Positions 6,126 to 47,069 of a stretch of DNA of 64,000 nt are shown here, piece after piece. Both the position numbers and the translations under genes were made by a program. The stretch's first letter is position 1. The number at the start of each line of letters is the position of its first letter. Below the pieces are notes generated by a model, which was given only the letters and a program-made list of their open reading frames with translations, was not told where the DNA came from and did no database searches. The stretch is from Chara braunii (taxonomy: Eukaryota; Plantae; Charophyceae), in assembly GCA_003427395.1 (NCBI GenBank), contig BFEA01000009.1:4039660-4103659 (forward strand), in the 5' to 3' direction.

Positions 6126-7000
6126 TCACGCCGGTCCCTCATGGTTGTCCTGTTCGTCAGGCTCTTCGAACAGGTTAGCCACCCCCTCAAGGTAGTTTTC
6201 TCCCATTTCTATCTCTCTGATAATTATTGGCTCATAGTAGCCTTATACTCCTCAAACGTCAAGCGTGGTAACCCGAATATCAGGATTTCGATGAGTTTGA
6301 GTAGTTCACGGATCTGATTTCCCCAAAACGGTTTATGACCAACTGACACATCATAAAACATTCCCGTCGTCTGTGGCTGGAAGTGGTGGATCCAAACTAA
6401 GGTCGAGTCCACCAAGTCTCTTGCCCTCGAGAGGCTGCCGAATACTAGGTCCACCATAAAACGGGGTACTCGGCACCGCAATCCTGTCATCGGGGCCCTA
6501 AACTCTCACTATCCTCCTACCTCCACCCGAGTTCTCAGTCCTACATTCCTTCTCCCCTGAATCTCCTGGCCTATCCGGTTCACTATCCGGGCAGCCGTTC
6601 GGAATATTGGCAGCAGTCCATGTCCTAGTGCCATCTAAGTTCCTAGCATGTGCCACCCAATCTCTGATAGGTATACGGTCCCCGTCACCCTCAATTCAGC
6701 ATATAGATCGTCCCATGGTCCCCTATTGAATCTCATACCTCTCCATAAACACTCTACCATCATGAAGGTCTGGTCCCTTCCCAAGGTCACAGCTCTTCAT
6801 TCCGTGTCGATCCCTCGGACCAAGTAGCTTGCTGGAAGTGACACTTCCCATCCGTCCTCGCTTTCCGTGGCCGGCCGAGGGTGCGTGGGTCGTCGCGACA
6901 TCCAGGCGCGTCTCATTGCCATCGTTGGTTAGCGGTTCCCTGCACAGTTTAAACAGCGAGCGAAATCTGCTTATTTCAGCCATTCCTTCGACCACCACTT
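6126..7000 (-). pseudogene. Accessory ORF A4 (uncharacterised family), disrupted
   Basis: Manual translation: GTVYLSEIGW (~6682-6653), LRCRVPRFMVDLVFGSLSR (ORF 6224-6490), MGENYLEGVANLFEE tail; all align to A1. Confidence 0.7.
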
Positions 7001-7067
7001 GGGCAACTCCCCAATCCTTAATCCGCCCTCCTTTTCTTCCTTACTCCTACCTTCTTTCCTTTCTCTT

Positions 7068-8057
7068 TTACTGACCCGTCTCCTCTTCTGATGGCTCGTA
7101 CAGGAGGTTCAGACCGTTTACGTAAATAAACCCCTCGTTTATTTCTCATCGAACGACGCCCCATAGAACCTCATCGTTAACAACTGGAATTCTAGGCCTT
7201 GTGGTGAACACAGCGCGCAACATTCGCAACACCTCATACCTCTGCTCACCGCCGAACGACCCCATTTCCAGGAAGGCTCTGTAGTATTCCTGGTGGACCG
7301 CCACCTCCTCCAACGTCAGGTTGTCGAGGTCGGTCACTGCCCGCCTGACAAGATCCAGTCCGCCTAGGTGGCAACCTCATTCGAACGTTCTCACTAGGCA
7401 AATTGAAACTCCCGGTCATGGCCTCCCTAAGGTTTGCTGTCACGTCGTCGAACTCCGGATCTGCGAACTCGAGCCCCGCCTGCCACACTAGCTGTCATGC
7501 CCCTTCGAACATGCTTAGCGAATCTTCTCCTGACGCTAGTAGGACTCCAAACGAGCATCATCCATCCTCCGATAAGTACAACCATCCTTCCGCGCGGACA
7601 TGTCCCCGCAGGTCCGGATTCCACTCACTATTCTCATCCGCCCGCCACTCAACCTCGGTTACCAGGAAAACCATGTTTTCCATAAGCTCGACCCCAACCC
7701 AATCCACCATCGGGTGTCGGACCTCACTTACGGTAGGCAGGCTGATTTCTACGCCGCCAGTCGCTTCCCTTGGGGCTCAATTCCCAGCGGGCGATCCTCA
7801 AGGAACGTCCTCCTTCGTGCCATTGCGCGTCCTCTACCGGCCTTCAATCTTTGCCCCGCGGCGCCGGAGCGATCCCTACAATGGTTGGACACCCCAATCC
7901 CAGTCTTAGTACTCTTATCCCTGGTTGGTTTGCATAAGATACATGTTCCCCTGTCCACGTCACCCCCTAACTTCTCCCCTTCCTCCTTCTTTGCTCCCTT
8001 TACCCCTTCTTTTACCCCTGCTAGTTTGGGCTTTCTTCCTGCTCCTAGTCGTACCAC
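7068..8057 (-). pseudogene. Accessory ORF A3 (same family), disrupted
   Basis: Manual translation 7770-7540: GGVEISLP...DWVGVELMENMVFL...RGHVRAEGWLYLSEDG*; C-terminal EYYRAFLEMGSFGGEQRYEVLRML; start uncertain. Confidence 0.72.
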
Positions 8058-8838
8058 GTTACCTCGAATAGTTTGAACACATCATCCACATAGCAAGGTG
8101 TTGCTGCTACCTCTCTGCGGATTATGGCTTCCCTGATCTCCGGAGCTACCTTTAGCCGATCGTTCATGTCTATATCCAAAATGATGAGGACCTCCCGGGC
8201 TCTGTCGTCGTGGAAGGGCCCAAGTTTCAACGATGTTTTATAAAACTTTTCCGTCAACCACGCGCAATTTACGTGTACCCGCTCCATAGTGCTGGCCACC
8301 TCCGTGACGTGGTCAAAGCCCCCGAACCAGTCCGCCACGAACTCGGGTACCCAAATCTTGGTTCGCAGGTAGGGAGGCCTGAACTCCCTCCATCCCCCTA
8401 TTACGACCTTACTACGGACTACGTCCCAGCCTTTGTTGGCAAACCTCTCGCCTGCCCTCCGAGTCCTCGCCTCCGCATCCCCCAGAAGCCACATCAGACT
8501 TTGTCCTGCCGCGAGCGTTGTGCAAAATAAGTGTCAACCTTGCTCGGAGAGGATGACCGTCCCTACCGACTCCACCCTTCCTTCAACAATCTCTTCCCAT
8601 CCTTCCTCTTCTCTTAGAGGATTCCATACGCGCTCTACCCACAGGTATGATAAATCTGGTACAATCTCAAGTCCAACCCAGTCACATGTGGTCCCTCTCC
8701 ATTGATTATCTGCTGGTATGGACATCTCTACTCCCCCTTCGACTCGTCTCGGCTCCCATCCTTTAAACGTGCAGTCTCTTAGTTGTAGTCCCCTTGCCCT
8801 CCTTGATCCCTTGCACAGCCCCAATCCACCCATGCCAT
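8045..8838 (-). pseudogene. Accessory ORF A2 (same family), one in-frame stop
   Basis: ORFs 8534-8878 and 8045-8494 are in the same frame, separated by TGA: GGVEMSIP...DWVGLEIVPDLSYLWV...GRVESVGTVILSEQG*...WVPEFVA...KFYKTSLKLGPF. Confidence 0.78.
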
Positions 8839-8858
8839 ACAGCCCCGAGCCTTTTCTT

Positions 8859-9671
8859 TTAGAAATCCCAATACTCAATCTTTACCCCCTCTTCCTCATC
8901 CGAGTCGTCTTCGTCCTCCTCATACCACAAGTCATGTACCCCTTCCATAAACGTCTCCCCTATCAGGACATTCCTATACATTATCCTCCAATGCACGTTG
9001 CTCGGGACAAACAGGTCGTTCGTACTAAGATGGTTTAGCATCGTGGCTAGTTCCTTCGCCCAATTCCCTTCGAACGACCCCTTCTCGGCAGACAGATGAA
9101 AGAAGTCTTGCCGGGCCCCTTGGTACAGCCCCATGCTTGCCATGGATTTGCATATCCGCACCAGCCTGCTCCGGGTTCCGAAGACAGCGTCCACCATGAA
9201 GGGCGGCATGACACACCTCAAGGTCCTAAACGACTTTCGTACGTTCGCTCTATCCCGAAGTTCCACCCGTACATCAATCGCCTCCATCACCATTTCCACC
9301 CTCTGGCACGCGGCCCACACCACTTCCCGCTCAGCCTCCTTGAACAACTTGTACGGGAATAATCCTAAGACAAACTCTATAATCATGGCGTTTTCCTTTT
9401 CCTTAGACAAGTAGACCCATCCCCGAGCCTCCACGGTCCCCCGAAACTCTAAGTCCAACAGGCTCGGCGCTAACCTCGTCAAACTAACCTTGGTCCACAT
9501 TGTTGCGATCCATAGGAAGGCATCACTTTCAACCAGCATCACGGTTTGGTATGTCGGCTCCAAGTTCGTCCAGGTCCCTTCTTCCAACATCACAACCGAC
9601 ACCCCACCCCTTACGTTCACCGGCATTTCTGCTCCGCCGGAGTAGGTCGGTGAGGACAACCACCGTGCCAT
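8859..9671 (-). CDS. Accessory ORF A1, intact 270-aa uncharacterised protein
   Basis: Uninterrupted ATG-initiated ORF; AFLWI...RGTVEARGWVYLSKE...LRCVMPPFMVDAVFG...GSFEG; acidic tail; paralogous to A2-A4 and D3-D6/D9. Confidence 0.8.
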   Translation of the reverse strand: MARWLSSPTYSGGAEMPVNVRGGVSVVMLEEGTWTNLEPTYQTVMLVESDAFLWIATMWTKVSLTRLAPSLLDLEFRGTVEARGWVYLSKEKENAMIIEFVLGLFPYKLFKEAEREVVWAACQRVEMVMEAIDVRVELRDRANVRKSFRTLRCVMPPFMVDAVFGTRSRLVRICKSMASMGLYQGARQDFFHLSAEKGSFEGNWAKELATMLNHLSTNDLFVPSNVHWRIMYRNVLIGETFMEGVHDLWYEEDEDDSDEEEGVKIEYWDF

Positions 9672-9679
9672 CTCGTCCT

Positions 9680-10082
9680 TCCCCAGTTGCCGAGTCCTGC
9701 TTTTTCAACGCTTCCTGAAATGTTCCAACTCTGGCATTTGAGAGCGTGAAGGAGGACAAAGTTTACGATCATCCGCTTTCATCATGCCACTAGGCATTTG
9801 ATTCAAGCATTGGACAATGATTCAAAGACTTTGTCGCATTTCTTCAATGCGGACACAATAACGATCATAACAATCTCCTCGTGTACCAAATCGGTCCTCG
9901 GTTAGGTCAGCTGTAGTCCTAGATGAGAATTGTTTTAGACCTCTCATCAAGGTCTCCCTAAATTTTCCCTTTGCCCATTTCCCAAGTACCGTCGCCCTGT
10001 CGCACCCAAAGTTGGTCACCATCCACCGACATTCCTTCTCTTGGTTCCTTTCCTTCCGACTCCTATCCTTGCTCATTTCCAT
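9680..10082 (-). pseudogene. Possible first small accessory ORF of element A
   Basis: 86-aa ATG ORF (9822-10082) whose frame stays open briefly past its stop, lying just upstream of A1; no motif recognised. Confidence 0.35.
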
Positions 10083-12129
10083 CTTCTCTCACTCGTGCGG
10101 ACTTAGATAGGGGGCGAGAATACACGTAAAAGGCTCGGTTCCTTCCCAACAATCCCAAGCAACTTTACAGAGGGAGGCACAAAGGAAAAAAATCAGGCAA
10201 TCCTCGCACACAGGCCGGTCATCTCCTCACCAGCCTTTTCCCAAGAGTGAACTCTCCACTGTTACTATCGGCAGAGTTTTATCCCGTACCTCAAGCACAA
10301 CTCAACCGTCGTGAGCGCGGTACCCAGACTCCAGTGGGGGGACACCCTCACCTTCTTGCCCAGAATACCCCATCCCGTCTTGTCGCTCTTGTACAACCAC
10401 ATTGGCACCGGGAATTACCCCGCGTACTCGGTGGGAACATAAATCGGTCGTCCGGGCATTCACATCCATCGGTCCGATAAGAATTAGCCTTTGCGATGCT
10501 GTATCGCGAGAGGCTACTAATCACCTTCGGAGCTCCCTCCGAGCCCCACATGCAACGACCCCCCGTCGCCCGTCAACAGGTCAGGCCCTACCTGAGGAGA
10601 CGTTTCACACCCCTTCCGGGCAAGGCGCTGAGCCAAGCTCGGACCCACCCGGCGAGAATGCTACTAATCAATCGGCGTGCCAACCCGCCCAACGGCTCGG
10701 TGGCGTGACCTTGCACATGAAAGCCCTGTGGCCTACCCGAAGAAAACGATGTTTCGCAACCCGCACCAGCCGGTTTAGACCCACTCTTTCCTTTCGAAAT
10801 GAGGACGCTCAATTCTCATTCATGCAAACCACAAATCCCAAGCGGGACACACACCGTACAAGTGTCTTTCCCATGGTGCCCCCAACGCTTCCTACCCATG
10901 CCTTACGTTTTTCTCTTGGGACCGTGTATGTCACTCACCCCCAGTTTCCATACATCGTGCCTAGTGCCTTTTCGTGAGCATCTTCAAGGGTGAGCTAGTT
11001 TTCTTGGAGTCTAGCAACTCCCTTCATTCCCCTCATCTTCACTTGTTTGTCCGTTCATAGGGAGGGATTGTTCTTTCTCGATTACCGTTTTGTTCATATG
11101 AGGTTCCTTCAAGCATTTCAAGTGAAAGTGCAAGGAGTCCGCTGTGCTCCGAAGAAGAGAGAAGAAGGCACCCGTGTCGGTCGGAACACTCCGTCGCGGG
11201 ATTTTCATTGAAATCCAACCTAGGCCGAGCACCAACCGCCTGCCAGGTCACAGGAGCCCTTCTTTCACACGAAGAGGAAGGGTCGACCTGTGGCTGCCCA
11301 AGGCTTCCCCGGACTGATGAACGTCAGCCCGAAAAAAGGAGGACTAGAGTCACCTCCCAAGGAGGTGGCTAACCAAGTGTGTCACATGCATGTTATTCCT
11401 CCAGGCTTGGGCTTGCCATGCGCCCAGCCACCCTCAAATCTGATTCTCTCAAGGGGATAGAGCATACACAAGTCCTCGTTCCTTATCTTGAGTTGTGTTC
11501 GCGCACATGCGTCGGACGCCCCCCTCGGGATCGTATGGGTCAGTTTAACCCATACCCGGTGCTTCCACGATTCTTTGTAGCGGTCGTACCCTGACAGACT
11601 TTCGAGCCTGAGTCGACCCCTTTGCGGGTTCCATTTGGCTCGACCCGCCCACGCTCATGCTCAGGGCGCGGGTCGTTCGTATAGGGGCACCCCCACCTAG
11701 TGCTATGAGATGGATAGGGATGGACCATTTGTGAAGGGGCTTTACATTGGGGGATGTAGCTCCGCTCTCGCGTTAGATGGTAGCTTTATGATCACTCATG
11801 GCGTTTTCTCAATTCATTTAAGTGTAGCCAAGCAATTACTCATTCCAATACACAAGCAGTCCAGGGGGTTCCTTGAGAGTTTTTTTTCTTTCGTGCACAG
11901 GCCAAGCGTCATCCTTCGGCCACACACCTTTTCACTAAGGACAACAATCCCTATGGCATCATCGAGGCGCGGCGAGGCCATCCACCCCCTAGCCCCTATA
12001 TTTTTTGCTTAACATACGCATTATGTTCACATGTCCATCGCTACAGTCTTCCCCTGAACAAAACGCACGCACGTACTAATCAACCTTCCTTGGAAAAGTC
12101 TATTTCTCAAAGTCGGTCCCGGAAATCCA

Positions 12130-12852: not shown

Positions 12853-13668
12853 TTTTTTTTTTCTTTTTTTTTTTAATGCCATCGTCAGCCTGCTAAAGGA
12901 AGTGGTAAGAGCAGCTCCTTGTAGCAGGTATGTCGCCTGCTAGAAACCGGGTTCAGCGTCCCGTAGCAATACACATACTCAGCACACAGAGCAACCGAAG
13001 GGCCCGCCATCATTGATTGCCCTGGAAGACTAGGGGATTAACTGCGCAGACCCTGCAAAAGGTCCATGGGGGTGGGACAAGGGCCCAAAAGGGAGGGGTT
13101 GTCCTCTCCGGGGCGGCTCCAAAGACAGACCGCCCCTCCTCCTCCCCCCGTCCCCTACCTCGGACTATAAGCATAAATCCTTAAATACGTCGAGATCACT
13201 TCAAAACAGTCCTACAACTTCAACACATAGAAACCATGCACACACACAAGATCAATTACGGTCGTAGCGTCGGGATGTTCAAAACTCCGGTAACTTGAGT
13301 CCTCCCCACTCTGGATCCGAACAGTCACAGTGTGGACCTCGGTAATGGCATAAGCTATGTACTCCTCATCAAGGGTCACACCAGACCCAAGATCGGCAAA
13401 GTACGCATCGTAAGTGATGTCAGCAAGGATTTACATACTCCTCATGCGGTTCACAATGTTGGATCGGAACTCTACACAAGTAATGGACGGTGCTCTACCC
13501 AACACAGCTCGACGAAGGCATTGCCAGTAACTGTTTGGCTGACCTTCGAACACATCCTCCGGGATGAAGTACTCTGGCGCAGTGAGCAAAGCCACGTTCA
13601 CAGGGACTGGTGCCTCAGCAAACTGTTCCGCGTAGTGATTATTCCAGTCGTCCATGTCGACCACATCG
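12853..13668 (-). other. Unidentified coding fragment followed by hairpin-rich tail and A-run (retroposed RNA-like)
   Basis: ORF 13431-13664 continues in frame past a TAA (ILADITYDAYFADL...); hairpins at 12889-12928 and 13110-13136; T-run 12853-12874 on + strand. Confidence 0.4.
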
Positions 13669-15167
13669 TTGGACTAGCTTCAACTTGATCCTACGACGAT
13701 CATTTTTTGTTATCACTGATAACAGATCGGTTGGTTGACCGTCGACTCGTCGCCTCACGACACAACTTTGCTTACACGTGTACCTCAACTTTATTGCCTC
13801 AGCCCTGAGATTTTGATATGTTTCTTTGAGGGTTTTAACCGGACTTCTTTTAATGAGCATTATAAATAACTTATGAGATTTATGAAAAGTTGGGCTATGA
13901 TTGGGGCTTGAGTGTGTGAGGTGTGGTGTGAGTTACAAGGAATACTAAAGTTGACCACATTGGTGTATGGCAATGCGCCTATTGTGTGTACCTGTGTTTT
14001 GTGCCGGTTAGTATTTGGAGCTTGATATATGAGCCGTACTTTGGAGACGGTGAGAATGACAACCATGTGACGCGCGATCTGCATACCTGATGGGTTTATG
14101 TTTCCCCTTCTTTTATTTTATCTCGAGTCCTGATTTGATATATGAGTGTTGGATGTTTATTTATTTATGGGATGATTTTGCTTATTAATTTTGATAGTTG
14201 GACGTTGTAGTCCATGGCAGCCGTCAAAGTCAACCCCCTAGACTTATTTTCAGGCCCTGGACGATAGAGCTGGTCACCAAAGCAATAAGAGATGATTGTC
14301 ACCACAGGTATGAACCTGTGTACCACCCACTTTCTGCAAGGTGCAAAAGAGGGTGTGGTTCTCAACCGCGCTTGGCGGTTGTCCAGCGTCGAGAGATCAT
14401 TCCCTCAAGGCGCGTGTCAGCCGACGCTCGAGTATCGAATGCGACCCTCGAGATTAATGAGGACGGCATGAGTATGGGTATAGTACGCCATCATTGCGAC
14501 TGCTTGCGTATACTTGCATTGCGAGTCGATATGAGTTAACCCTGCGTCCGCGCGGTTTTATACTAAGTTCCGTGCGCGTCGCCTATCCGATTTCCGCGTC
14601 GGAGAGTTATGGGATGACTACTAAGGGACTAGGAATGTTGTCGTGTTGTTCGTTCTGTGTTGTTCTGTGAACAGATGTATATGTGTGCATGTTTTTTTAT
14701 TTTTATGTTCTTTAGAGTGGCGTGCGCATGGTGTGTGGAATGCGTCCTAGTCGACCGGCGACAAGCCGTGTTAGGGACCTCAACTCCCCAAGATGTCGGT
14801 TCGAGTGCGGGTATGATAGAGGCGTATTACCGCGTGTACCCCCTATGCTACAGCGAACGAGGAACGCCCTCGGCAAGTCCACCTATGCGATTGTAACTGA
14901 TCAGCTTTTGTACTGTGGACTAGTACCTCGGTGGGGATACGCCCACCAAAGGGAGGTGACAGTTCCTGCAAGGTGGAGGTAAGTCGTGGCTCGTGTAGGC
15001 CCTCTCATGTCGTAGGAGCTCGCGAGAGGTATGGCCGGCACACTCGGTCGGCGCAGCTTGCGAAAACTCCATCATGTATTCGCGACGAGGACAAGACCAA
15101 CTCCTGCGTGACGCGGCCGGGAGGGTCCCGCCCTGCCTTGTGCGGTGTCGGACCGATGCGCTCGACA
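13669..15167 (+). repeat. LTR copy 1 of element B (5'-truncated or uncertain left end)
   Basis: Direct repeat of 26600-28090; ends ...CTCGACA and is followed by a PBS. Confidence 0.85.
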
Positions 15168-15169
15168 GG

Positions 15170-15186
15170 TGGCGTCTTTGCTGGGG
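15170..15186 (+). promoter_or_regulatory. Primer-binding site, degenerate tRNA-Asp type
   Basis: TGGCGTCTTTGCTGGGG 2 nt after the LTR end; Athila-type consensus is TGGCGCCGTTGCCGGGGA. Confidence 0.7.
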
Positions 15187-28521: not shown

Positions 28522-28524
28522 AAT

Positions 28525-28535
28525 TGGTATCAGAG
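28525..28535 (+). promoter_or_regulatory. Primer-binding site, tRNA-iMet
   Basis: TGGTATCAGAG 3 nt after LTR end. Confidence 0.9.
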
Positions 28536-33600: not shown

Positions 33601-34089
33601 GTGCCCGTTAACATGCCAAGATTTTAGAAAACGTACGGGCTACTACAAGAGCGCCCAAATTCATCCGCCTATAAATGTTTCTACTCTTTTTTTTTTCCGC
33701 GGTCGATAGCTAGGCCAAGTACTAGTGGTTTAGGAAACCATCAAACAAGTGGTTCAAGACGCAGCATGTACTCTACACCGCACTCAAATGCTAGATTGAA
33801 GTCATAGATCAATATGACTTCAAGATAGACTATCTGAAAGGAGAGTACAATAAGATTGTTGATGCGCTATCCGATAACTGCATTTCGCTTATTTGACAAT
33901 GTAACTCGAGCATTGGTGGCCGCGTACAAGGAACATCCTCCAATGGTAGACATCATCCACAAACTAGATGTGAAAAACAAAAGCAACATCTGATAAGTTT
34001 GTGATGGTAAATGGATTTCTCTTCCTTGAAAAGGCAGGGTTCAAAAAACTATTTGTATCGTCTAGTGAGATTTCGGGTAGTTTATTTTA

Positions 34090-35570: not shown

Positions 35571-35642
35571 TCTCAGCAGGGACTTTCGAAGCTCAAGGGG
35601 ACGGAATGCGAGGACTGAGCCCTCACAGGGCCCTAACAGAAA

Positions 35643-36583
35643 TGCAAGTGTTCCCGGCTGGGGGGCCCAGCAAACCTTGTGCCCGCCCTAAGTGAAGGCG
35701 GTCTTGAATATCCACATGAGGCCTATTTTCAACATTTTCCATATGTGAGTACACAGACAGTTGCAGCACGCCAGCTGGTTGCAGGGAAACGTGAGCCTCC
35801 AGGCTCTTTCCAGAAAACAAGGACTGCGATGCACTGTTGGGCCCAGGGTCGGGTGGTTGCTCCCTGGGCACACGGACCGTGAAGCCGACACATCACGCAT
35901 CCACCACAGATGAATGAGAAAGCAGCATTGTCGTCACACAATCTCTGCGAGCCACAATGAGAATGTGGCCAACCCTTGAACCTGGGAGGCTACTTATACG
36001 TGCCCAACCGACAAGGGCCCAGGCCCTTAACTGTAAAGGTGGGCTTGGGCGCAGAGACTGGGGACCGACTGGAAGCCACTCGAAACTTCCCCAGCCAGGC
36101 CCAGGCAGACACACACAGGGGCTGCATTTTTCATAAGGGAAAGGGCCAGCCCAGGCAGGGGCAGTCTGGCCTAGGCAGGCAATGCAGACACGCTGCTGCG
36201 TTGCTGCGCAAGTGTAAGCTGGGATGTATCATGCCCTTAGCACCAATGCGGACACGCTGCTGCGTTGCTGCGCAATGGTGAAGGTGGTCTTCGGGTAGGC
36301 GGCGCATGCTGTGGGGAGACGAGGGGTGATGACGAGAGGAGAGAGAACGTACCTGGTGTATGCCCTTGATCGGCATTGGTGTTGACGTCACGTACATTGG
36401 TCTTCGAATTCAGAGCCATCCAGTTACAAGAACGTAGATACATTAGATAGGCTGAGTAGGATAGGTTGGGCGCCGGGCGCCAGACGGTAAGTTCAATGGT
36501 GCATTGCACTCTCTGCTTGGTTCATGACTATCTGAGCTACTGCATGATTTTGCAACCATTCTGTCTACCGCTCATTCCTTGCA
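35643..36583 (+). repeat. 3' LTR of element C
   Basis: TGCAAG...CTTGCA inverted termini; 3' third homologous to 28170-28521; start inferred from the terminal inversion only. Confidence 0.65.
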
Positions 36584-38877
36584 TTCCACTCAAAAACTCT
36601 GAAAATCGAAGGGTCTGTGGATTTCGTTGTGGTTTTGGCAGGAAAAATATCTTTAAATTGTTTTTTTTTTAAATAGATGGTGAAATAAATGCCACGCCGA
36701 TTCATCTCTACCAAGTGTGGGCCAACCGGATATGTACCTCAACTTCAGCTATTTTTCACGACCAAACGAATGTGTCGGGAAATCTGAAAATTGGACGGTC
36801 CGTAGATTTAGTCGTGATCTTTCCAGGAAAAATATTCAAACAAACAAAAAAGTCCTCTAAACCACGAAATAAATCGCAGCGGAAATTCGATGCATTTTTC
36901 ATTTTTGCCACTCCCCTGGTTCTCCCCACCGTGCTACCGTAGCCCTCTTCAACCTGTGCTACCGGTGTCGGGTGGCTGCCTACCAGCCGAATGCTCCCTT
37001 TTCTTTGATAAGAAAAAAGATTTTGCTTTGCCGCTTGTTTTTTTTTATGTTTTTGTTGAATGAATGCATGTGCCTGAGTGTGTTCGGAGAGATTTTGGGG
37101 TCTCGGCCCCATACTAACCCTTGCATGAGCTAAAAGAGTGGTCGGCACGACAGTCTCCAGCGGGGTCGCGTAGGCTGCAAAGGTCAGAGTTTTGTTAAGG
37201 GCGTGCTCTGGGAACAGAGGAAAGGGGGACGGGCTTTTGGCCAGCCAGAAATGAGGGAGCGGGGGAAGAAGAACGAGTTTGATGTCGGCAGCGGCCATTC
37301 CACTATGGGCGTACGTTGGCCACACCAAGAAGAGAGAAGCCGACTGGGAGCGCTGGAGGTAGTGAGCTCCGGGGATCGACCGAGAGCTTATTTCGGGACG
37401 GGCCGCGACGAGATTCGAACTTGCCCTGAGGAGTCACGACAGAGCCTGGCCGCGGGGCCACGTAGGCTCGGCCAGACGGATGATACAGATGGCAATCGCA
37501 AAATGCAGTGGGTTCGCTCCTCCTCGAATCTGGTGGGGCCGGCCACTCAAGCTCTAGCAAACGGAGGTCGGTTCAATTGACTAGGGGATCAAAAAGAGGG
37601 AGGCGGGGCGAACGTATGGAGAAGAAAGAGGGGGGGGATCAAGCTAGCTGAACTCTAGCTTCAAGAAACCGGAATGGCAGGAGAAAGAAAAGAGAAAAAA
37701 AAGGGGGAAACATGGCTGGATCGGACGAAGAATGGATGAACAAGAATCAAGAAACGGTTAGAACGAAGGAGCGCGCGCGTGCTCCTTCTTGATAACTGTC
37801 GGAGTTTGAAAGAGTTGAAAGGAGGGCCAGACAGGCCATACGGAAGTTGTTGGGATCGAGCGGGAACGGGAGGGCGCAACGGCATAGGCCGAAGCAAGAG
37901 AGAGTGAGGATGGGAAGATGGAATGAGGCGGGGGCAGGGAGCGAGCGAAGAAGAGAAGGTGGGATGCCTGGCGCGAAAACACACAAGCGAAGTTTGGAGG
38001 AATCCGGTGTATGTGGAAAGATCGGCGGACCCGATACACAAATATAGGGAACACTTGCCGGAGAGCGAGCGTGCACGGAAACGCATGCAAAACGGATGAA
38101 AGAGGCTCGGGATCCGAAAGGAAGGTAGAAACGAGTGATCATTGGATGCAGGAAGAGCGAGCGGGATCGCGAAGTCGGCGGGAAGCCAAAAATTTTGGGA
38201 TCAGCGCCGAAACGGAGGAAGGAAGAGCCAGAAGGAATCAAAGGAGGAAGGTGTATAAAAGAGGGGGGGGGGAGACGTGAAGAAGGGAGGCGCACGTCAG
38301 ACTTCAGTAGCGCTTGACAGCGGGCTGGCGCTCGGGCGAACGCAGGAACGAGAAGCGCGGGCGCTTACGAAACCAGCGTACTTATGCACAGACGTGGCAG
38401 CAGAACGCACTTTTGAGCAGCCTGCGAAGGTGCGCGCATGATAGGGGCGTACTCTGGCTACTCTATGCGCCCGAACAAGAGGGGAAGGATCCGCGCACGA
38501 GCTGTGCGGGAGTGGGCGGGGAAGAGCCGACGAGTCCGAGGATACCAAGGCACTCTGGTGCGAGGTAGGAGGCGGCGGTCGCGGCGTCAAGCCAGACCAG
38601 AGCGCGAGCGAGGAGGGCGAGAGGCGAGAGGGGCTCTATGTGCGAGGGGCTACGTCAGAGCGGAGTGGTCCGGCCGTGGGGGGCCATGCGTGAGAAGGAG
38701 CACGGAGGACGCTCGGCTGCGACACAGCTATCGATTCGGGCGAGGGGCGAAGGAGAACGGAGATAAGAGACAACGAAGGTGAACGTGGAGGAGGAAGGGA
38801 GAGGGGGATTCTCGTGCGTTCGCGGTCAGGGGATTCTTCGAGGGATCGTTGGTTAGGCAGGCCACAAGCTTCTCGGT

Positions 38878-39230
38878 GGGAGTTCGCTGGTTACGAGGCT
38901 CTCTTAGCTCGTCACCAGGCTCGCTGAACACAAGCTCCTCAATTGCGAGATTCTACCGGGGAGTCCGCTGGTTACGAGGCTCTCACTTAGCTCGCTGATG
39001 ACCCTGTCACCGGGTTTGCTGATTACGAGTTCCTCAATTGCGAGATTCTACCTGGGAGTCCGCTGGTTACGAGGCTCTCACTTAGCTCGCTGATGACCCT
39101 GTCGCCGGGTTTGCTGATTACGAGCTCCTCAATTGTGAGGTTCTATCTGGGAATTCGCTGGTTACCAGGTTCCCGCTTAGCTCGCTGATGAGCCTGTCAC
39201 TTGGCTCGCTGATTACGAGCTTCTCCATTG
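38878..39230 (+). repeat. 95-bp tandem repeat, 4 units, inside LTR (also 57439-57790)
   Basis: Units start 38878 (shortened), 38959, 39054, 39149; gggagtccgctggttacgaggctctcacttagctcgctgatgaccctgtc... Confidence 0.9.
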
Positions 39231-39608
39231 TGAGTACGTGCGTGAGGTTGCGTGCGACGAGTTTTGCCGTTTTCAAGTTTTTTTTTATGATCACGAGCTC
39301 ATTGGTTCCGGATTCCTCGGTCACAAGTCTCCGCGCGTTAAAAATCTGCCGCACGTGCTCATTAGTTCCGAGCTCCTCGTGGCGCTAGAGCATTACCAAC
39401 CTCTGGCGGCATTCACCAATTACGCGGTAGCAGGTGCACGCGGTGCACGTCCGCTGGGCAAGAGTTCCGGCCGGAGGGCTCCTTTTCTAGTTCGAACCTC
39501 TGAGCTCAGATTCGGCCCTGAGGGAGAAAGGGAGAAGAAGAGAGGGAGAGAGGGAACGAGAAGGGGGAGAGAGAGAGAGAGAGAGAAAGGGGGAAGGAAA
39601 AAAAAAAG

Positions 39609-40180
39609 AGTTCTGTAAAGTGTGGCGAAGGTTCCACCTCTGTTCCGGAATCCGGCTCAGTCTGGCGTGGGAACGAGGCTGATTTTCTCGACTTTCATAA
39701 AAAGTGGTAAAGGTTCAATCTCGGTCTCTGGGGTCGGTGCAGTCGGACTTGTGGGAACAGACAAGGTTTTTTTGAGTTCCGTAAAAGAGGCGCATATCCA
39801 GTCTATGTCCCTGGATTCTATACAGTCAGATTCGTGAAAAAGAAACTGTGTTTTTTTTCTTTTCTTGAGTTCTGAATAGCATGGATTTCGAGTTCTGTAA
39901 AGTGTGGCAAGGGTTCGACCTCTATTCCGGAAACCGGCACAGTCAGGCTCGTAGGAACGAGACCGATTTTCTTCTCGAACTTCATAAAAATGTGGTAAAG
40001 GTTCAATCCCTGTCTCTGCAATCGGGCGGTCTGACTTGTGGGAGCAAGCTGGTTTTTTTTCAGTCACCATCCCTGGATTCCGCACAGTCAGGTTTGTGGG
40101 CAGAAAAGTGTGGTAAACGTTCAGTCTCCGAGCGAGACTGATTTCAACCAATTATGTAGAGTGGGGTAGGGTTCCTGCAG
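39609..40180 (+). repeat. Degenerate ~80-bp repeat with ~281-bp higher-order duplication inside LTR (also 58149-58720)
   Basis: gagttctgtaaagtgtggc.a.ggtt at 39609 and 39890; recurring cagtc.g.ct.gtggg motif. Confidence 0.7.
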
Positions 40181-40381
40181 AAAAGCGTCCAGCCTCTTTT
40201 TTTTTGAGGTCGATACGTGGGGGCAAAGAGGGTCCTCTCAAGTCCCTTGGGGCAAGGTGGGTGCCCCACATAGGACCTTACGCCCGGGCTCTGTTCTTGA
40301 AGTCTGCGCAGCAGCAACAAGGGGGGGGAGCGCTTCAGTCTCCGGGGCGCCGGGTTAGACCGGAGGAAACGGCCGACAAAG

Positions 40382-40399
40382 TGGCGCCGTTGCAGGGGA
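40382..40399 (+). promoter_or_regulatory. Primer-binding site, tRNA-Asp type
   Basis: TGGCGCCGTTGCAGGGGA, one mismatch to TGGCGCCGTTGCCGGGGA, 3 nt after LTR end. Confidence 0.9.
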
Positions 40400-41964
40400 T
40401 GAGCATTCTCCCGCGGCCTCGACTGGCTCAAGGACCACGGTGTGAGAGAGGACGAGCGTGACAGGTGGTGGAGGGTACACCTTTTTTTCGGCAATCGTTT
40501 CTTCGGCAGTTTGGTTCTCGGCATCGACTTTTCCAAACGGCATTTCGGCATCGACCTTTTTCTAATGGCGTTTTCGGCCTCGAAGATCCTCGACACTTTT
40601 TCGGTTGGGGAATTGTTTTCCGTGCGGGAGGGGTTGCTGGGTTGTCTGGGAGCGAGGGACTTGGGGGGATCGGAATCTCTTGATTTTGCAGGTCCGCACC
40701 GGCCCTGCTTGCGAGGTCAGGCTCTTGCTGGGAGGTGTGATATTTTTTGTGTGTTATTTTTTAAATCCGCGAATTAAGAGGGTGAAACAGTTTGCTTGTG
40801 GGGTTTGAATAGGGGTAAAAAACAATCAAAGAGGGGGAAGAAGAGTCGTACGGGAAAATTGTGTGAGTGGGTCCGCACGTGGGGAAGAGAGAGTGGACAC
40901 TCGGGGGAGAGAGGAAAGGGGGGTTCAAGAGGGGCCAGGGACGCCGTCGGGGTTGGTCCAAAGGGAGAGGGGTTTGCCGAATATCCTCGACCCACACGGG
41001 TTGTGGACGTCACCCGCACGGGATGAACTCCAGCGAGGGAACGGGCTTCACCAGAGGGGGCTGGGTTTTCTGTTCTCGACCCACGCGGATTAAGGGAACG
41101 GAGTTCTCAAGCTGGAAGTGTTCGGGACTTGGGGGTAAGAAGGGTAGTGCTTCGAGTTCCGGGACAAAGGGTCGAGGGAACTTCAACCGTCGTTGAGAAC
41201 GAAAGGGGTGGGGGGCTAATTCGGGAAGAAGAGAAGAGAGGTGCGTGGGGCACCTTGGACGAGGAATCGGAGGCCGAGTCCTGGGTGGACCGGTGTCTAG
41301 CCGATTTCTCGGACTCGGATCTCGGGGGCTACTGGGACTACGAGAACGAATTCTGAAAAGGTCGAAGGCTACAAGGTACGTATTTAAAGTGGCCAAGCCT
41401 GAGAGACTTTCTTGCTAAAATTCTAATTCCCCACCGTTTTTTGGAGACCCCGATTAAATTATCCGATTCCGAGAGAGAAAAGAGTCAGACGATGGCGAAT
41501 AGGAAGAAGGGAACGAAGTGAGAAGAGTTCACGATACAAGGAGGAGAACGGGAGGGACTAGACAGACTAGTAATCATTGATTAATAGGCAGATAAAGTCT
41601 CGGGACCCGGGTAATTTCACGCTCGAGGTGGGCCGAGTAAGGGCGTGGTGCCAGATAGGCTAACTTAGGACTACGGGTCGGTTCGGTGGGGGACATAGGG
41701 CACGGGTATGTGACTACGGTCCGACTCCGGAGAGGGGGTTGCCACCCCTCTTCGGGGATAACCTTTGCTCGCGGCTAGTTTCTATACCTGGAAGTGGGAG
41801 GACCTCTCAACGGGGGAGGACAAAAAGGTAGCCGAGTGAGACGACGCTCCTTCTCTGGTCCATCTGATCCTGCTGAGCTCACAGGCACCTCCTCCTTGTA
41901 GGGTAGGAGTGGTCTCTCGAGTGACCAAAAGTAAGGCAAAAAGGGTCTTCTTTGATTAGAATGT

Positions 41965-42315
41965 ATGAGCTTAGAGGCGGTCCCGGAAGGGATTAGTGTG
42001 AGCAGTTACGGTGGAGTCGACGTGTGGTGCCACACCTTTCGTCTGTGGACGGGAGATTTCAACGTTGCCATTTATGTAGAGGAAGGGCAAGGTCAGCGGG
42101 AAAATTTCCTCCGTAGTTGGGAAGAGGCGGTGGGTCACTCTCGCGTGGAAAGATAGGAGTTGAGGGGATACGGTTTTAGATACTTCTACACTTTAGGATA
42201 CCGAACCTACCCTAAGGGTGGTCGACCTGCGCCGGTGATTCCGGACGCCTACCTTGACGGGTCGGACGAGTGGAGAGCACTGGTCGCGATCATAGAGGGG
42301 ATAGTGGGGGAGTAG
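41965..42315 (+). pseudogene. Accessory ORF D1 (~116 aa, one in-frame stop)
   Basis: Reads through TAG at 42154: ...LWTGDFNVAIYVEEG...SWEEAVGH...YGFRYFYTLGYRTYPKGGRPAPVIPDAYLDGS; paralog of D2. Confidence 0.8.
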
Positions 42316-42322
42316 GGAGCCT

Positions 42323-42719
42323 ATGAGCCTAAGAGTTTTGGAGGTTGAGCCAGCTGGCATTAGTGTGGGTAGTTGTGGCCCTTCTGGGGATGTAAACGTT
42401 TAGTGTTACAACTTTTATTTTGTGGACTGGAGATTTTGACATAGCACTCTATGTAGAAGAAGGGACGGATCGAGGGGAGGACTTCCTGGATAGCTGGGAA
42501 GAGGCGGTTGGCCATGCTCGGCTAAAGAGGGTACTTTTAGGAACTTACGGGATTAGGCATTTTTACACACTAGGGTGTCGAACCTTCCGACGAGGAAAGC
42601 GACCCGCCCCAACTATACCGGAGGCCTATCTCAACGGGTCGGGCGGTTGGAAGGTGTTAGTAGGGATCATCGGGGGGGTGGTCCATGGTCAGGATTCTAG
42701 AGGCGACTGGCGACGGTAA
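42323..42719 (+). pseudogene. Accessory ORF D2, tandem paralog of D1 (stop at 42401, frameshift ~42418)
   Basis: MSL...GISV...WTGDFDIALYVEEG...SWEEAVGH...YGIRHFYTLGCRTF...RPAPTIPEAYLNGS. Confidence 0.8.
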
Positions 42720-43427
42720 GATCCAAATCGAAAAGGCCGACCTCGACAAGGAGAGACAGTGTTTCAGCGTCCCTTTAGACCATCGTATGGAGGGATATTT
42801 AGCCGGGCGCGAGAGAGGCCTGAAACTCGAAAAGGGAGTTTTTCTCTGGGCGCGCTTTACTGTAGGTATTTGGGAAGGAGATCAGTGGACCAGGACTAGA
42901 CCTAGGAACGGGGTGAAGGCCCGACGAGCGACGCTTCGTGCGGAAGGCACGATCTACTTGAGTCGGGAGGCCTAGGTAGAGTACGTCACCCACTAGGCGT
43001 TAGGGCGGTATCGGGCGGACCATCAGGAGGTACGCGTGGGGCCTATTCTTAAACAGTTCTTCGAGGAGGTACCCCTTCGACACAACCTGTTGTTCCGCTT
43101 GCGAGTGACTTGTGCTCGGAACGAGGAATACCCTCGTGCTACGGGTTGCGTCCAAGCCATATTTTCATCTTACGTCTTCAGGAGAGTGTGTGGAGAGGGA
43201 GCGCGTACGAGAAGGTCGTGAAGTCTATAAGGCGAGAGAAAAGAAGAGGGTTGTCCTTTCATTCTCTTCATTGGTACTTCTCTTATTGTGTGGATAACCC
43301 GGTGCCGTACGGGGTTAGAGATGACCGGATCCGAGAACGGGTCTCTTTGGAATCGGAGCAAGAGCGTGAAGGCGGGAGAGACTACCATTACCAAAGGGTT
43401 TTTGAAGTTCGGCAAAAGGTGTTTTAG
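42685..43427 (+). pseudogene. Accessory ORF D3 (main family), disrupted
   Basis: MVR start; VFLWA...RATLRAEGTIYLSREA*; EYPRA; KVVKSI...LHWYFSYCVDNP. Confidence 0.75.
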
Positions 43428-43432
43428 CATGA

Positions 43433-44122
43433 ATGGTTCTTTTTGACAAGGACCTTGGTAAGTTTGTCGGGTCCCCTTTAGATGAGCGAGGGGTTCGTAG
43501 CTTGGTTCCAAGCAACGGGGAAGTCCCCGATTGGAGGAGGTTGCAAGGTGGAAAAATCACGGTCGGCGGGAATTTCGTGTGGATAGAGTCGGGAGAAATA
43601 AGGGTTAGAGCGACTAGGGTGCATCTCAAAGTCACTGCGATAATCTTTGTCGAGCCGGGCGATTGGTTCAAGGTCGTAGTACCCCTGGTCTTAGGCCAAG
43701 GGGGTGGGCTGGATCTATTGCTCCAAGAAGTAAGAGAAGTAAGGAGAAGGTGGATAGTGAGGACCCGGAGAGAGTTTAGCTTTGTGGCAATAAAATTAGA
43801 GCAGTTCGCCCGGACAAGCGAGCTTCCGAGGGCGAGTTATCCGTTAACCTCAAGGGCCCCGAGCTTTGTATTCTTGAGATCAAACGAGGATAGGGTAGTA
43901 AAGCTCTTGGAGAGAGGAAGAAGTTTAGGCCTACCCTTTAGGGCCCTGTGGATACTTTACACTCACTGTGTCGACCAGGGAATCCCTCCGCGAGGGAAAC
44001 TCTGGGGTATTTTCAGGAGGCTTGGGTCTCTCGAAAAGTATGTTGCCCTCTCGCCTGGGAAGTACCGCGAGTGGGTCTTCAAAACAACCACGGTAGATGG
44101 TAAGGTTTACGCTCAGCAATAG
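43433..44122 (+). CDS. Accessory ORF D4, intact 229 aa (main family)
   Basis: NFVWI...KVTAIIFVEPGDW...LVLG...LPRA...APSFVF...RVVKLL...LWILYTHCVDQGIPP. Confidence 0.8.
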   Translation: MVLFDKDLGKFVGSPLDERGVRSLVPSNGEVPDWRRLQGGKITVGGNFVWIESGEIRVRATRVHLKVTAIIFVEPGDWFKVVVPLVLGQGGGLDLLLQEVREVRRRWIVRTRREFSFVAIKLEQFARTSELPRASYPLTSRAPSFVFLRSNEDRVVKLLERGRSLGLPFRALWILYTHCVDQGIPPRGKLWGIFRRLGSLEKYVALSPGKYREWVFKTTTVDGKVYAQQ

Positions 44123-44799
44123 CGGAGTGGTAGAAACGATAGAGGTCGGTGAAGGAAGTCAGGTCTTGATTCCTAGGGACCCTCGTGTAACTCTCTACTG
44201 GATGAGTGTTGAGAATTGAGAAGGGAGAAAACATCGGAGAAGGTGCTTACATGTGGGTCAGGGCTCATCGACTCACCTGGAAGGAAGGGGTGCGAAGGGG
44301 AGGTCCGCTTCACCTGGGTCGGTTTCTCGAGGTCCAGGCTACGGTTTTCCTGGACGAGGACTCGTGGACCGAAGTTTGGAGGGGCTTAGTGACCGGCCTA
44401 GAGACTCATACGGAGTACCGCAAGTCCGCGAGGAAGGCAGCGAACGATATAGTACTAGGCAGTTACGAGGAAGGGACTTCGGTCCCTCGAGCTTCCAAGG
44501 TGCTTCACGCAGCCTTGCCCGAGTTCCTGGGGCAGTCACTCCTGCGGGACCCGAAAGGGAGAGTGGTAGAGGAACTCCGAGCCGCTCAACAATCCAGGGT
44601 GCGGACGCAAGGGCTATTTTGGCTCTACACTCGGTGTGTTGACGCTGGGGCTCCCCCTGGGGGAGAGCTAGCTCCTATACTCGAAAGGTTAAGGGAGTTT
44701 GAGGGGGTGAGAGCTCACGTTGTTGATGTCCCGTACGCCCGCCTCTTTGGGGAAGAGCAAGTGACTAACCGAAAGGGGTACGAGGCTCGGACGGGGTGA
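44097..44799 (+). pseudogene. Accessory ORF D5 (main family), frameshift near 44210
   Basis: ATG 44097 (MVRFTLS...) joins ORF 44206-44799: AYMWV...EVQATVFLDEDSW...VPRA...LPEFL...RVVEEL...LFWLYTRCVDAGAPP. Confidence 0.78.
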
Positions 44800-45549
44800 T
44801 GATAAGGGGAATTTCGGGAACTCGTTGGGCCTCGATAGAGCCTATAGAAGAGGCGGGGGAGATTGTCCACATCATGTTACCGAAAACGAGCTTGGAGGGC
44901 CCGACGCGAACCATTCAAAGAGAAGTGGCTGAAATTCGCCGAGGGAAGGCATTCGTTCGGTTGTCAGTGAATAGCGAGAAGGGGTTAGTGATCGGGGAAG
45001 CCAAGATATTCCTTTCGAAGGAAGGTCCCCTAGAGGTAGTCCGAAATTTGAAGTTGGGAGAACACCCTCTCTTAGACGTGCGAGTTGTACGACAGATTAG
45101 AGAGACTAGTGGAGGAGGTGAGGCCTCGAGAAAGGTACCGAAAGGTATATCAAGTGACATACGCAGGTTGGGAAGAGGTACCGCTATTTGTCGCCAGTAA
45201 CCCCGTAGGAGTCCCTCGTTTCATCCTCGAGCGGGTCTACCCCTCCGAAGCGGTCAAGAGGGCGGTAGAGTGTAGGATCTCGATCTTGAACCAATTTCGG
45301 TTCACTAGATCGGACCTGCACGCCCTACTATCGTGGTGCCTCCGAAACCCATACCAGGACAATTGGTCGTCACTAGACGACATGGGCTACGCCTTCGAAG
45401 GTTGGGGCCAACACGCGAGGGCGTCGACCATTTCGTGGAGGTACTTGGGGGAGATCTGTGAGGCAGGGTTAGAAGGATTGGACCCCTCGGATCTCATTCG
45501 GATCGTGATTGCGTGCCGACGAAGGAACTTGAGGCATGAGCACGCCTGA
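44799..45549 (+). pseudogene. Accessory ORF D6 (main family), one frameshift
   Basis: MIR start overlapping D5 stop (TGATG); VRLSVNSEKG...AKIFLSKEG...LGEHPL; VPRFILERVYP...LHALLSWCLRNP. Confidence 0.75.
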
Positions 45550-45730
45550 CACCGGAGAGCTAGTGGGACTAGAGAGGGTGAGGGCAGAAGTGTATAGAAT
45601 CCTGACCCTTTGTTGGGAAGAGGAGAGAAGAGCAAGGTCAGGGTCCTTGCGCAAGATCAAATTACTTGAGACAACCACGATTAAGATCTTCGACGAATTA
45701 AAGGAGGAGCTGCTATCGGGAGGAAGATAG
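45536..45730 (+). CDS. Accessory ORF D7, 64 aa, helical/charged
   Basis: ATG overlaps D6 end; stop 2 nt before D8 ATG; no motif. Confidence 0.55.
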   Translation: MSTPDTGELVGLERVRAEVYRILTLCWEEERRARSGSLRKIKLLETTTIKIFDELKEELLSGGR

Positions 45731-45732
45731 GC

Positions 45733-46083
45733 ATGAGAGCTACCTACACCTCTAATTCGATAACCTGGGAATTAGAGACGCGTGACAACGGCCCCGAGGT
45801 CGCGGTAGAAGGGGGAGGGGAACTTAGCCCAGGTCTCGGAGAGGACCAAGAGGCTCGAGCCAAGAAGGAATTCCTCGTCGAAGTCCGACGATTAGCTTTG
45901 TGGAAGAGGAGATCCTGTAGCACTTTTGCAAAGTTTTCGGTTTTTGTTAGTAAGGCGGGGGAAGTGCGATTCTCTAGGACTCGGAGGGAACCCTTGCTTG
46001 AGGTCAAGAGAAAGTTTGAGGAGGGCTCTAGGTGGCTCAGGACTCCCTTCGAATTTTTGCACCTAGTTGAGGCCCGTTTCTAG
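45733..46083 (+). CDS. Accessory ORF D8, 116 aa, unknown
   Basis: ATG 2 nt after D7 stop; FSVFVSKAG weakly recalls the family motif. Confidence 0.55.
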   Translation: MRATYTSNSITWELETRDNGPEVAVEGGGELSPGLGEDQEARAKKEFLVEVRRLALWKRRSCSTFAKFSVFVSKAGEVRFSRTRREPLLEVKRKFEEGSRWLRTPFEFLHLVEARF

Positions 46084-46214
46084 GATAGGACGGGACAATA
46101 CGAGAGAGTTTTGCAGAAGACGATACTCGACCAAGGCGAGAGAGGGCGAGGGAGGTGTGAGGACTCGTTAGCGGAGGCGGCCGAGAGATTAGCCCGGGTA
46201 AGGTAGGCCTGTCA

Positions 46215-46817
46215 ATGATTAGATACGACAGGGGGAGCCTTGTCGGGACCTTGAAAAGGGCTTGGAAGTCGGGGGCTATATATGGAGTAACCCTCCCCAA
46301 GATCAGGGAGGAAGGGGAAGCTATTACGAAGTTCTTCGAGATCTACGGGCAGAAAATGATAGTTCGTTTTTCGATAGTTTCCGAGGGAGGTACCCGCACG
46401 CGAAGGGCTGGAATCTTCATGTCTCACAACGATAGGCAGTTCTTTGTGACCGAGTTAGCAGAAGGAAAGGACCCTCTAGGTATCGCTCGAAAAGCCCTAG
46501 ACCGGCTTAGAGGGTTGAGAGGGGGGGCCGCCGAAGGACGCGTGGTAGATAGGATTGAGTACCGAGGGAGGCTAGAGATCCTGCATGCGGCTCACGGCCG
46601 GACTTGGGAAATCCCTGCTTGGGCCTACCGACTGCTCTACCCCGACGACGCGGATGTGAGGAAGGTCCTAAATAGAGGGCAAATAATTGAAAAATTTCCC
46701 CAAGGAGAGGAGAAGGAACACGAGTTATTCACCCAGTGTTGGGAGCCGCGGGAGCATACGTACTTCGAGTGGTGGGCATTAGTAGGGAAGTTCATTAAGC
46801 CTCTATTTAGAGGGTAA
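46215..46817 (+). CDS. Accessory ORF D9, intact 200 aa, closest to D6
   Basis: MIR start; VTLPK; VRFSIVSEGG...AGIFMS...EGKDPL; IPAWAYRLLYP...HELFTQCWEP. Confidence 0.78.
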   Translation: MIRYDRGSLVGTLKRAWKSGAIYGVTLPKIREEGEAITKFFEIYGQKMIVRFSIVSEGGTRTRRAGIFMSHNDRQFFVTELAEGKDPLGIARKALDRLRGLRGGAAEGRVVDRIEYRGRLEILHAAHGRTWEIPAWAYRLLYPDDADVRKVLNRGQIIEKFPQGEEKEHELFTQCWEPREHTYFEWWALVGKFIKPLFRG

Positions 46818-46826
46818 GCCGGAGAG

Positions 46827-47069
46827 GTGGATAGAGCTCTGATTAAAAGGTGTTCTCAAGAGGGAATTAAGGGCATTTTCGATCTAGAGATTGTCAACCT
46901 AGCGTTAGCAGCTTGCGAAGAGAAACGAATACGCGACTTTTGGTGGACCGTGACTAGCGAAGAATCTGAGGGTGATAGTGAGGAACATGAATCAAGTGAA
47001 GGGGAGGGAAACTCGGAAGAAGGTAACGAAGCGGAAGGACATGGTGACACTAGCGAGGAAAGCGACTAG
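46827..47069 (+). CDS. Accessory ORF D10, 80 aa with acidic tail (may be a broken gag N-terminus)
   Basis: GTG start 9 nt after D9 stop; E/S/G-rich C-terminus. Confidence 0.4.
   Translation: MDRALIKRCSQEGIKGIFDLEIVNLALAACEEKRIRDFWWTVTSEESEGDSEEHESSEGEGNSEEGNEAEGHGDTSEESD

Follow-up and report, generated by a model that had tools for sequence, protein, structure and literature searches.

In the charophyte alga Chara braunii, a 64,000-nt stretch of DNA (assembly GCA_003427395.1, contig BFEA01000009.1, forward-strand positions 4,039,660 to 4,103,659; referred to here as the window, with coordinates counted from its first letter) contains two Ty3/gypsy long terminal repeat (LTR) retrotransposons, A (truncated, and probably of this type) and D, each of which has a tandem array of open reading frames (ORFs) upstream of gag. 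A preliminary description, made from the letters alone, had assigned nine of these ORFs, four in element A and five in element D, to one protein family. This is upheld by the analysis: the two arrays hold four and five paralogs, respectively, of a protein of ~250 aa, and they are real, element-encoded and conserved. All nine ORFs lie in the sense orientation, directly upstream of the gag of their element, as had been described. In the window copy only A1 and D2 are intact, and each of the remaining seven is broken by stops, by frameshifts or by loss of its start.

Array A begins with A1 (8859..9671, minus strand), an intact 270-aa paralog with an acidic tail that ends in WDF. It is followed by A2 (8045..8800, minus), which has one internal stop and has lost the ATG at its start position in the window copy, and then by A3 (7068..7823, minus) and A4 (6126..6983, minus), both of which have stops and frameshifts. 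The gaps at the junctions are 58 (A1 to A2), 221, 84 and 14 nt, the last being the distance from the A4 stop to the ATG of the gag frame. Another locus, L001, has A1 and then A2 with an identical 58-nt gap, and CBR_g4576 is a stop-free relative of A2 (79% identical). The WDF end after an acidic tail is found in nine of 13 A1 homologs and also at L001; tail and WDF together suggest a short binding motif. One gene model splices a piece of the leader onto A1, with GT...AG ends (a prediction only). The leader of element A (9919-10683, minus) is 75% conserved relative to positions 16-786 of L001, without codon periodicity and to the same degree as the coding part, and may hold RNA signals. Just upstream of A1 (9735-9887, minus) there is a nad7-like fragment (NADH dehydrogenase 49-kDa subunit; Pfam E 2e-17). 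It is likely to be an organelle insertion private to the window copy, because it is missing from L001 and from one contig of the DNA run X1.

Array D, on the plus strand, is a chain of nine ORFs: the main-family paralogs D1-D5, a duplicated pair (D0a and D0b) and two orphans (D4x and D4b). The count of five given previously thus stands for the main family, although the four further ORFs had been overlooked. The chain opens with D0a (41965..42315), a 116-aa ORF of a second duplicated family with one internal stop, and its paralog D0b (42323..42719; 60% identical, with a frameshift). Then come D1 (42685..43427; two stops and one frameshift), the intact 229-aa D2 (43433..44122), D3 (44097..44799), which has a frameshift and a stop that overlaps the start of D4 (TGATG), and D4 itself (44799..45549), also with a frameshift. 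The 64-aa orphan D4x (45536..45730) is not matched by the family profile hidden Markov model (HMM), its score being reached by 30 of 500 shuffles. The 157-aa orphan D4b (45733..46206), with one internal stop, is borderline with an HMM of D4 and D5 (3-7 of 500 shuffles) and is not matched by the A HMM; it is possibly a decayed family member. The last ORF, D5 (46215..47069), has an acidic tail and an internal stop (46815-46817), across which a C. braunii relative, P0020, aligns. By eye, D0a and D0b had seemed to be short members of the main family, a candidacy that was rejected as they fail every HMM. The ORFs occupy 99.6% of 41965-47069 (5.1 kb), and the stop-to-start gaps, from 5' to 3', are +7, -35, +5, -26, -1 (the TGATG junction), -14, +2, +8 and, to gag, +18 nt. 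As the starts were picked partly by nearness to the previous stop, the gap sizes alone are soft evidence. This chain-like packing, together with the AUG depletion considered below, adds to what had been noticed before. In the leader of element D, a short acidic frame (41200-41353) has a Trp/Tyr-rich end resembling the A1 tail; it has no ATG and no HMM support.

The evidence for a single family comes from profile comparisons, for which broken ORFs were translated with X at each break. An HMM of A1 and 12 homologs scores 45-71 bits on A2-A4, with none of 500 shuffles reaching the score in any case. Among the D paralogs, D1-D3 (13-33 bits pairwise) and D4-D5 (30-31 bits) form subgroups; the homology claimed for a single colinear family is borne out, with the amendment that the D side is divided. 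Direct pairwise scores between A and D proteins are 9 bits or less, and identity in the joint alignment is 13-17%. An initial A-only HMM gave scores on D1-D5 that were matched by 0, 1, 0, 2 and 0 of 500 shuffles, and in the other direction the D HMM clearly recognised A1, A3 and A4 but not A2 (12 of 500 shuffles). A second A-only HMM, built from 17 sequences and 71 slices with one D5-like slice excluded, scored 16.7, 6.4, 17.4, 17.6 and 11.2 bits on D1-D5, with 0 of 500 shuffles each, which bears out the relationship across elements that had been claimed. The same HMM gave no significant score on D0a, D0b, D4x, D4b or any of four gag pieces, and all 11 matches in a six-frame scan of the window (domain E < 2) lay inside the nine ORFs. 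Alignment of the A and D1-D3 profiles by hhalign gave a probability of 94% (E 9e-8) over 162 colinear columns. All 23 motif strings quoted in the preliminary description were located in the nine ORFs; the aromatic-x-W block, offered there as a shared motif, is present in five of the nine and missing from the other four. Self-comparison by blastn (E 1e-8, matches of at least 80 nt listed) found none among the nine ORFs, in keeping with the reported lack of evident DNA similarity.

Element D is a Ty3/gypsy LTR retrotransposon of non-chromovirus type. It has a TG...CA LTR pair, a 4-bp CCGG target duplication, a primer binding site and domains in the order gag, protease (PR), reverse transcriptase (RT), RNase H (RH) and, lastly, integrase (INT). 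The 5' LTR (36966..40378, plus; ends TGTCGG...CCGACA) is directly preceded by CCGG, and the 3' LTR (53756..58901, plus), which includes a 1.8-kb stretch with a 931-N gap, is directly followed by it; both LTRs contain 95-nt tandem repeats (38816-39234 and 57377-57795). The LTR-to-LTR Kimura two-parameter distance is 0.052 (3004 sites), and the element is ~20 kb long when the gap-bearing 3' LTR stretch is not counted. Behind the 5' LTR lie the primer binding site (40382..40399, plus), which may be of the tRNA-Asp type, and an ATG-poor leader (40400..41964, plus); behind the array lies the decayed gag-PR-RT-RH-INT region (47088..53325, plus). With Pfam, neither a second RNase H nor a chromodomain was found in its pol; 120 aa separate the end of RH from the zinc finger of integrase, and ~430 nt separate the end of pol from the 3' LTR. 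A search of viral contigs with this pol gave no match. Of element A, the decayed gag-PR-RT-RH region (1..6111, minus) is present up to the window edge, which truncates it, and C. braunii gene models that bear A-type ORFs also have integrase stretches. Between the two elements, RNase H is 56% identical (63 aa) and Gag 29% identical (98 aa), so that they are different families of one clade, and the protein family is indeed common to two distinct elements. Both had been called giant; D is ~20 kb long, and no LTR could be delimited for the truncated A.

There is evidence that the paralogs have been retained by selection. The ratio of nonsynonymous to synonymous substitution rates (dN/dS) between the window and L001 is 0.11 over 249 codons in A1 and 0.07 over 213 codons in A2, and that between D0a and D0b is 0.13, compared with 1.0-2.5 in shifted-frame controls. 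A1, A2 and D0 are thus under purifying selection, and the same sign of selection is indicated within the paralog lineages; the long-term selection supposed earlier for the family agrees with values that are not near 1. Between paralogs, identity is 19-30% and third positions are near random. In unrooted trees with long branches, the A proteins are separated by one branch (support 87/90 and 93/95), D1-D3 and D4-D5 are grouped, and there are no one-to-one pairs of A and D proteins. The simplest reading is that the paralogs were amplified separately in each element lineage: one ancestral accessory gene would have been multiplied on each side, with every paralog keeping a role of its own. Because amplification would have occurred separately twice, with strong constraint where it was measured, the family presumably does something that the element needs.

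Arrays of this kind recur in C. braunii. With A-family queries, all 14 proteins found are C. braunii hypothetical proteins, and an A profile matched 60 of 1.84 billion library representatives. Of these 60, 48 bear gag or pol stretches resembling those of the window, in support of the arrays being part of the elements. The sources of 20 were checked; 19 are from C. braunii, and the other is a Logan record (P0039; 252 aa, stop-free) that is 35% identical to A2 and matches D3 at E 1e-5. The order A1, A2, A3, A4 is kept in all 12 library matches with at least two paralog types, and the full series A1-A2-A3-A4-gag is met again among gene models of C. braunii; as gene models join pieces, these matches indicate order rather than real fusion proteins. 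In 28 of the 60, there is a stretch that matches A3 best. Six weak matches (P0069-P0071 and P0073-P0075) are C. braunii gene models that form a third paralog group, represented by three in the tree; they are ~30% or less identical to A4, and two have a faint likeness to the gag-like frames downstream. At the DNA level, contigs of run X1, possibly the origin of the window itself, cover all 30 bins in both array regions; for D, 3805 of the 4145 contigs are less than 99% alike to the window, and for A, 9017 of the 9705. Many diverged copies of both array regions therefore appear to exist, although no copy number is implied. Two gene models are of separate interest: P0020 has a D5-like stretch before an A-type gag, through nested insertion or recombination, and P0054, in which a protein kinase domain is joined to the C-terminal part of A1, is probably mis-joined. 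In practical terms, dozens of C. braunii 'hypothetical proteins' are gene models derived from these elements and not host genes.

What the proteins look like has been approached by modelling. AlphaFold gave A1 a mean confidence (pLDDT) of 33 with its own homologs alone, and the A1 core a pLDDT of 77 and a predicted TM-score (pTM) of 0.71 with a 26-row cross-paralog alignment. In the latter model, a long-stranded alpha/beta domain precedes a helical one, and the final 25 residues are uncertain. Among the PDB and viral models, no Foldseek match to it reached E 0.001, and the best VIA Z was 5.2 (root-mean-square deviation, rmsd, 4.5; 75 aligned), mostly in the helical half and below the usual chance level. 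The best 50 rows contained no BTB, movement-protein or capsid chain, the N-terminal domain being barely probed by them. Such a lack of structural matches is no proof of a new fold. Sequence libraries gave a similar picture: for the family ORFs there was nothing in Pfam below E 0.1 (a wrong-frame D1 match aside) or in PHROG below E 0.02, half-domain profiles reached E 0.07 or worse against PDB sequences, the ESM Atlas had no usable match for A1, and a word search with the D alignment (a poor one of seven rows, 66-401 in length) found no protein. Rfam gave no match in the window. Designed Pizza propellers, which appeared among the PDB sequence matches, were rejected; their scores sum over repeats and no stretch passes alone. 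The family thus maps to no domain described in Pfam, the Foldseek targets or the PDB profiles, as had been supposed from its sequence. There may be likenesses to a strand of 30K movement proteins, an Arp2/3-type acidic tail, a histone-like Ala-Arg start and a KH loop. Across the nine paralogs one glycine is invariant, the other conserved columns are mostly proline, glycine or hydrophobic, and there is no conserved catalytic residue. No transmembrane segment was found in the family, the 19-residue hydropathy being 1.56 or less. We infer that these proteins are non-enzymatic, from the single invariant glycine and the make-up of the remaining conserved columns, and soluble, given the hydropathy; they would have a binding role.

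The two arrays differ in their translation signals. Array D contains 30 ATGs compared with 48 expected (z -3.4), nine of which are the starts, and its leader has six compared with 13 expected, whereas gag and pol of the same element have more than expected. Internal methionines make up six of 1721 codons (0.35%) in the D array vs 45 of 1612 (2.8%) in its own gag-pol, and out-of-frame ATGs number 16 vs 33-37 expected, a deficit reached by none of 1000 sequences in two nulls. These counts, unlike the gap sizes, do not depend on the choice of D starts. In general, a strong start has a purine at -3 and a G at +4. None of the nine D starts has both, with the caveat that the Chara consensus may differ from this general rule. 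Array D accordingly has the pattern that leaky scanning or re-initiation would be expected to leave. The motif UGGGA is a calicivirus-type termination-reinitiation signal; it lies 20-90 nt upstream of the stop at two of 13 junctions vs a background of 0.16, and is not enriched. Array A, by contrast, has 86 ATGs vs 69 expected, 3.5% methionine, and a G at both -3 and +4 in all three of its remaining starts. It lacks the leaky-scanning signature, and with strong starts and no AUG depletion it would need another route, such as spliced RNAs. There are precedents in the leaky scanning of Rice tungro bacilliform virus (RTBV) and badnaviruses past ORFs without internal AUGs (PMC5902531), and in green-algal bicistronic genes with weak first starts and start-codon depletion (PMC11291117).

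The remainder of the window contains other elements. Element B (13669-28090) has an LTR pair that is 89% alike, a decayed gag-like frame (17312-18253) and no family member; comparison with A and D found no pol, and it is probably non-autonomous. Within it, a stretch (24394-24700) that gave no Pfam match seems to resemble the end of plastid rpoC2. Element C (28171-36555), whose short LTRs are 78% alike, encodes RT, RNase H, integrase and a Tf2-like SH3 domain but contains no family ORFs; its RT is ~30% identical to that of D. A decayed protein-like frame of ~150 codons (13206-13700, minus) runs into the element B LTR, without a Pfam match below E 0.1. Finally, an element of 116-129 nt, possibly a small mobile element, occurs in three copies, one inverted (22186-22301; 61868-62316).

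The explanation that we tentatively favour, and consider quite possible, is that array D is polycistronic, translated by leaky scanning and re-initiation, and that the proteins of both arrays are soluble, non-enzymatic adaptors that blunt host control. Ribosomes scanning a single RNA would pass the weak starts, or re-initiate after each ORF, and array A would be expressed differently, for example from spliced RNAs. Each paralog might then bind its own host factor, one that acts in silencing or in RNA surveillance, with contact made through the folded core and, in A1, the conserved acidic-aromatic tail; adaptors against host defence are our best guess for function. Several observations weigh against this explanation. 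The decayed D copy retains 21 non-start ATGs, because of which scanning through to gag would be inefficient. Charge is not conserved, with pI 4.6-6.0 in A and 7.0-10.4 in D. The dN/dS values come from one pair per gene with dS near saturation and do not cover D1-D5, and the D side of the trees is weakly supported (69/76) with long branches. As for expression, with 6-13% of each raw run sampled, run X7 gave four reads on D and run X9 next to none on array A; run X8 gave 250 on D and 2644 on A, on both strands and mostly less than 95% alike, and its signal tracks DNA depth (rho 0.57 for D, 0.96 for A), as would DNA carry-over or pervasive read-through. A look-up of RNA data sets containing array D listed none, which counts neither for nor against its expression.

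The fixed gene order, the long retention of every paralog and the coupled D junctions would also suit co-expressed subunits of a single structural complex, heteromeric in make-up, by which the element RNA or particle would be carried through the giant cells of Chara or through plasmodesmata. The N-terminal domain faintly matches ring-forming chains of the PrgK/FliF type (Z 3.8 with rmsd 4.2 and 87 aligned; Z 3.5 with rmsd 4.3 and 83 aligned), but such Z values fall below the level common for unrelated models, and no viral structure matched at E 0.001 or better. It is also difficult to reconcile subunits of one complex with paralogs that differ in number and identity between A and D and have no one-to-one pairs, or with leaky scanning, which would yield unequal amounts; we regard this proposal as unlikely. 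Alternatively, the proteins might serve the very long RNA of the element itself, in re-initiation, export or protection from decay, in the manner of Cauliflower mosaic virus (CaMV) TAV or Rev. A gag that sits behind four to nine long ORFs would need help in a eukaryote, four of the five D proteins are basic, and KH-type-like alpha/beta folds are among the top Foldseek rows (E 0.06-0.3). Those rows are not significant, however, the A proteins are acidic, and one factor would suffice, which leaves the retention of four or five paralogs unexplained and the suggestion distinctly unlikely.

Two further alternatives can be given little weight. It is very improbable that the proteins hijack a cullin ligase through their C-terminal half, as a diverged domain of BTB/POZ-like type: ESM Atlas features of P0018 match BTB clusters at 0.79-0.83, and there is a likeness by eye to the BTB pattern, but only 64-74 of 256 features are shared, one third of shuffled proteins score equally high, and neither Pfam nor the 20 PDB sequence matches of the C-half profile include a BTB domain. 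The low direct scores and identities between A and D might lastly be taken to mean that the arrays are unrelated families whose motifs are shared by convergence or composition. Since none of 500 shuffles reaches the score of the A-only HMM on any of the five D ORFs, the six-frame matches all lie in the nine ORFs, the hhalign columns are colinear and P0039 matches both A2 and D3, this is scarcely credible. Returning to the adaptors, a broader proposal, which we hold with more doubt than the adaptor explanation itself, would be of a charophyte LTR-retrotransposon lineage with operon-like cassettes, in which up to nine cistrons per RNA are translated by leaky scanning and mostly encode one amplified protein, new in fold, whose task is to counteract host defence or to carry the element from cell to cell. 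If polycistronic translation is correct, array D would be unusually long among eukaryotic polycistrons and clearly marked by the avoidance of AUG, and it allows a direct test of multi-cistron translation in streptophyte algae.

Plant LTR retrotransposons commonly have extra ORFs, which are for the most part single and unexplained; in the present case a single family appears to have been amplified four- to five-fold, separately in two lineages. The literature searched yielded no description of a 5' array with several paralogs, nor of the Chara ORFs in question, although annotation in a repeat database is possible. Sense 5' extra ORFs are described for some Ogre, TatII and Tekay elements (Neumann 2019, PMC6317226; Vicient and Casacuberta 2020, PMC7264820), with one or two in Ogre, and accessory ORFs for the planarian Burro element (PMC6431247). 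Like Ogre/Tat elements, D is large and non-chromovirus-like, with kb-long LTRs and extra coding capacity. Unlike Ogre, which has a second RNase H (aRH), an Arg primer and a 5-bp duplication, it has no aRH, a 4-bp CCGG duplication and nine extra ORFs, five of one family. Plant-mobile, TRP28 and Athila ORF1 domains were not found in the array ORFs (Pfam, E < 0.1). Athila elements have a 5-bp duplication and a 3' extra ORF, in contrast to the 4 bp and the short pol-to-LTR distance of D; their primer is tRNA-Asp, a possible assignment of the D site as well. With Phygy, a non-chromovirus clade of Physcomitrella, D shares a 4-bp duplication of the form NCGN (CCGG in this one element) and the lack of an extra polyprotein domain, but Phygy elements are 7.7-10 kb long, mostly use a Trp primer and lack extra ORFs, compared with ~20 kb, another primer site and a 5-kb array. 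By the features published for these groups, element D appears to belong to none of Ogre/Tat, Athila or Phygy (PMC6317226).

Viruses provide other comparisons. The family differs from env-like ORFs in lying 5' of gag rather than 3' of pol and in having no transmembrane segment. Array D resembles the Caulimoviridae in its consecutive long ORFs with short overlaps or gaps before the capsid and RT genes, its paucity of AUGs and its weak starts. The two short ORFs of RTBV extend over ~900 nt, however, whereas D has nine over 5.1 kb, five of them paralogs, in an integrase-bearing LTR element; no homolog of CaMV TAV was detected. Walleye dermal sarcoma virus has a duplicated pair, orf A and orf B. 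Its orf C is situated 5' of gag, with its end 7 nt before it, and is presumed to be translated from genomic RNA (PMC3185748). That virus, a vertebrate retrovirus with an envelope, has only one upstream ORF. For function, the VANDAL DNA transposons offer a parallel, in that their VANC anti-silencing proteins are likewise accessory proteins encoded by a transposon; the analogy is functional only, since the transposon class is different and no sequence or fold link was found. If the proteins do act on host defence or in movement from cell to cell, the arrays would be comparable to the accessory cassettes of complex viruses.

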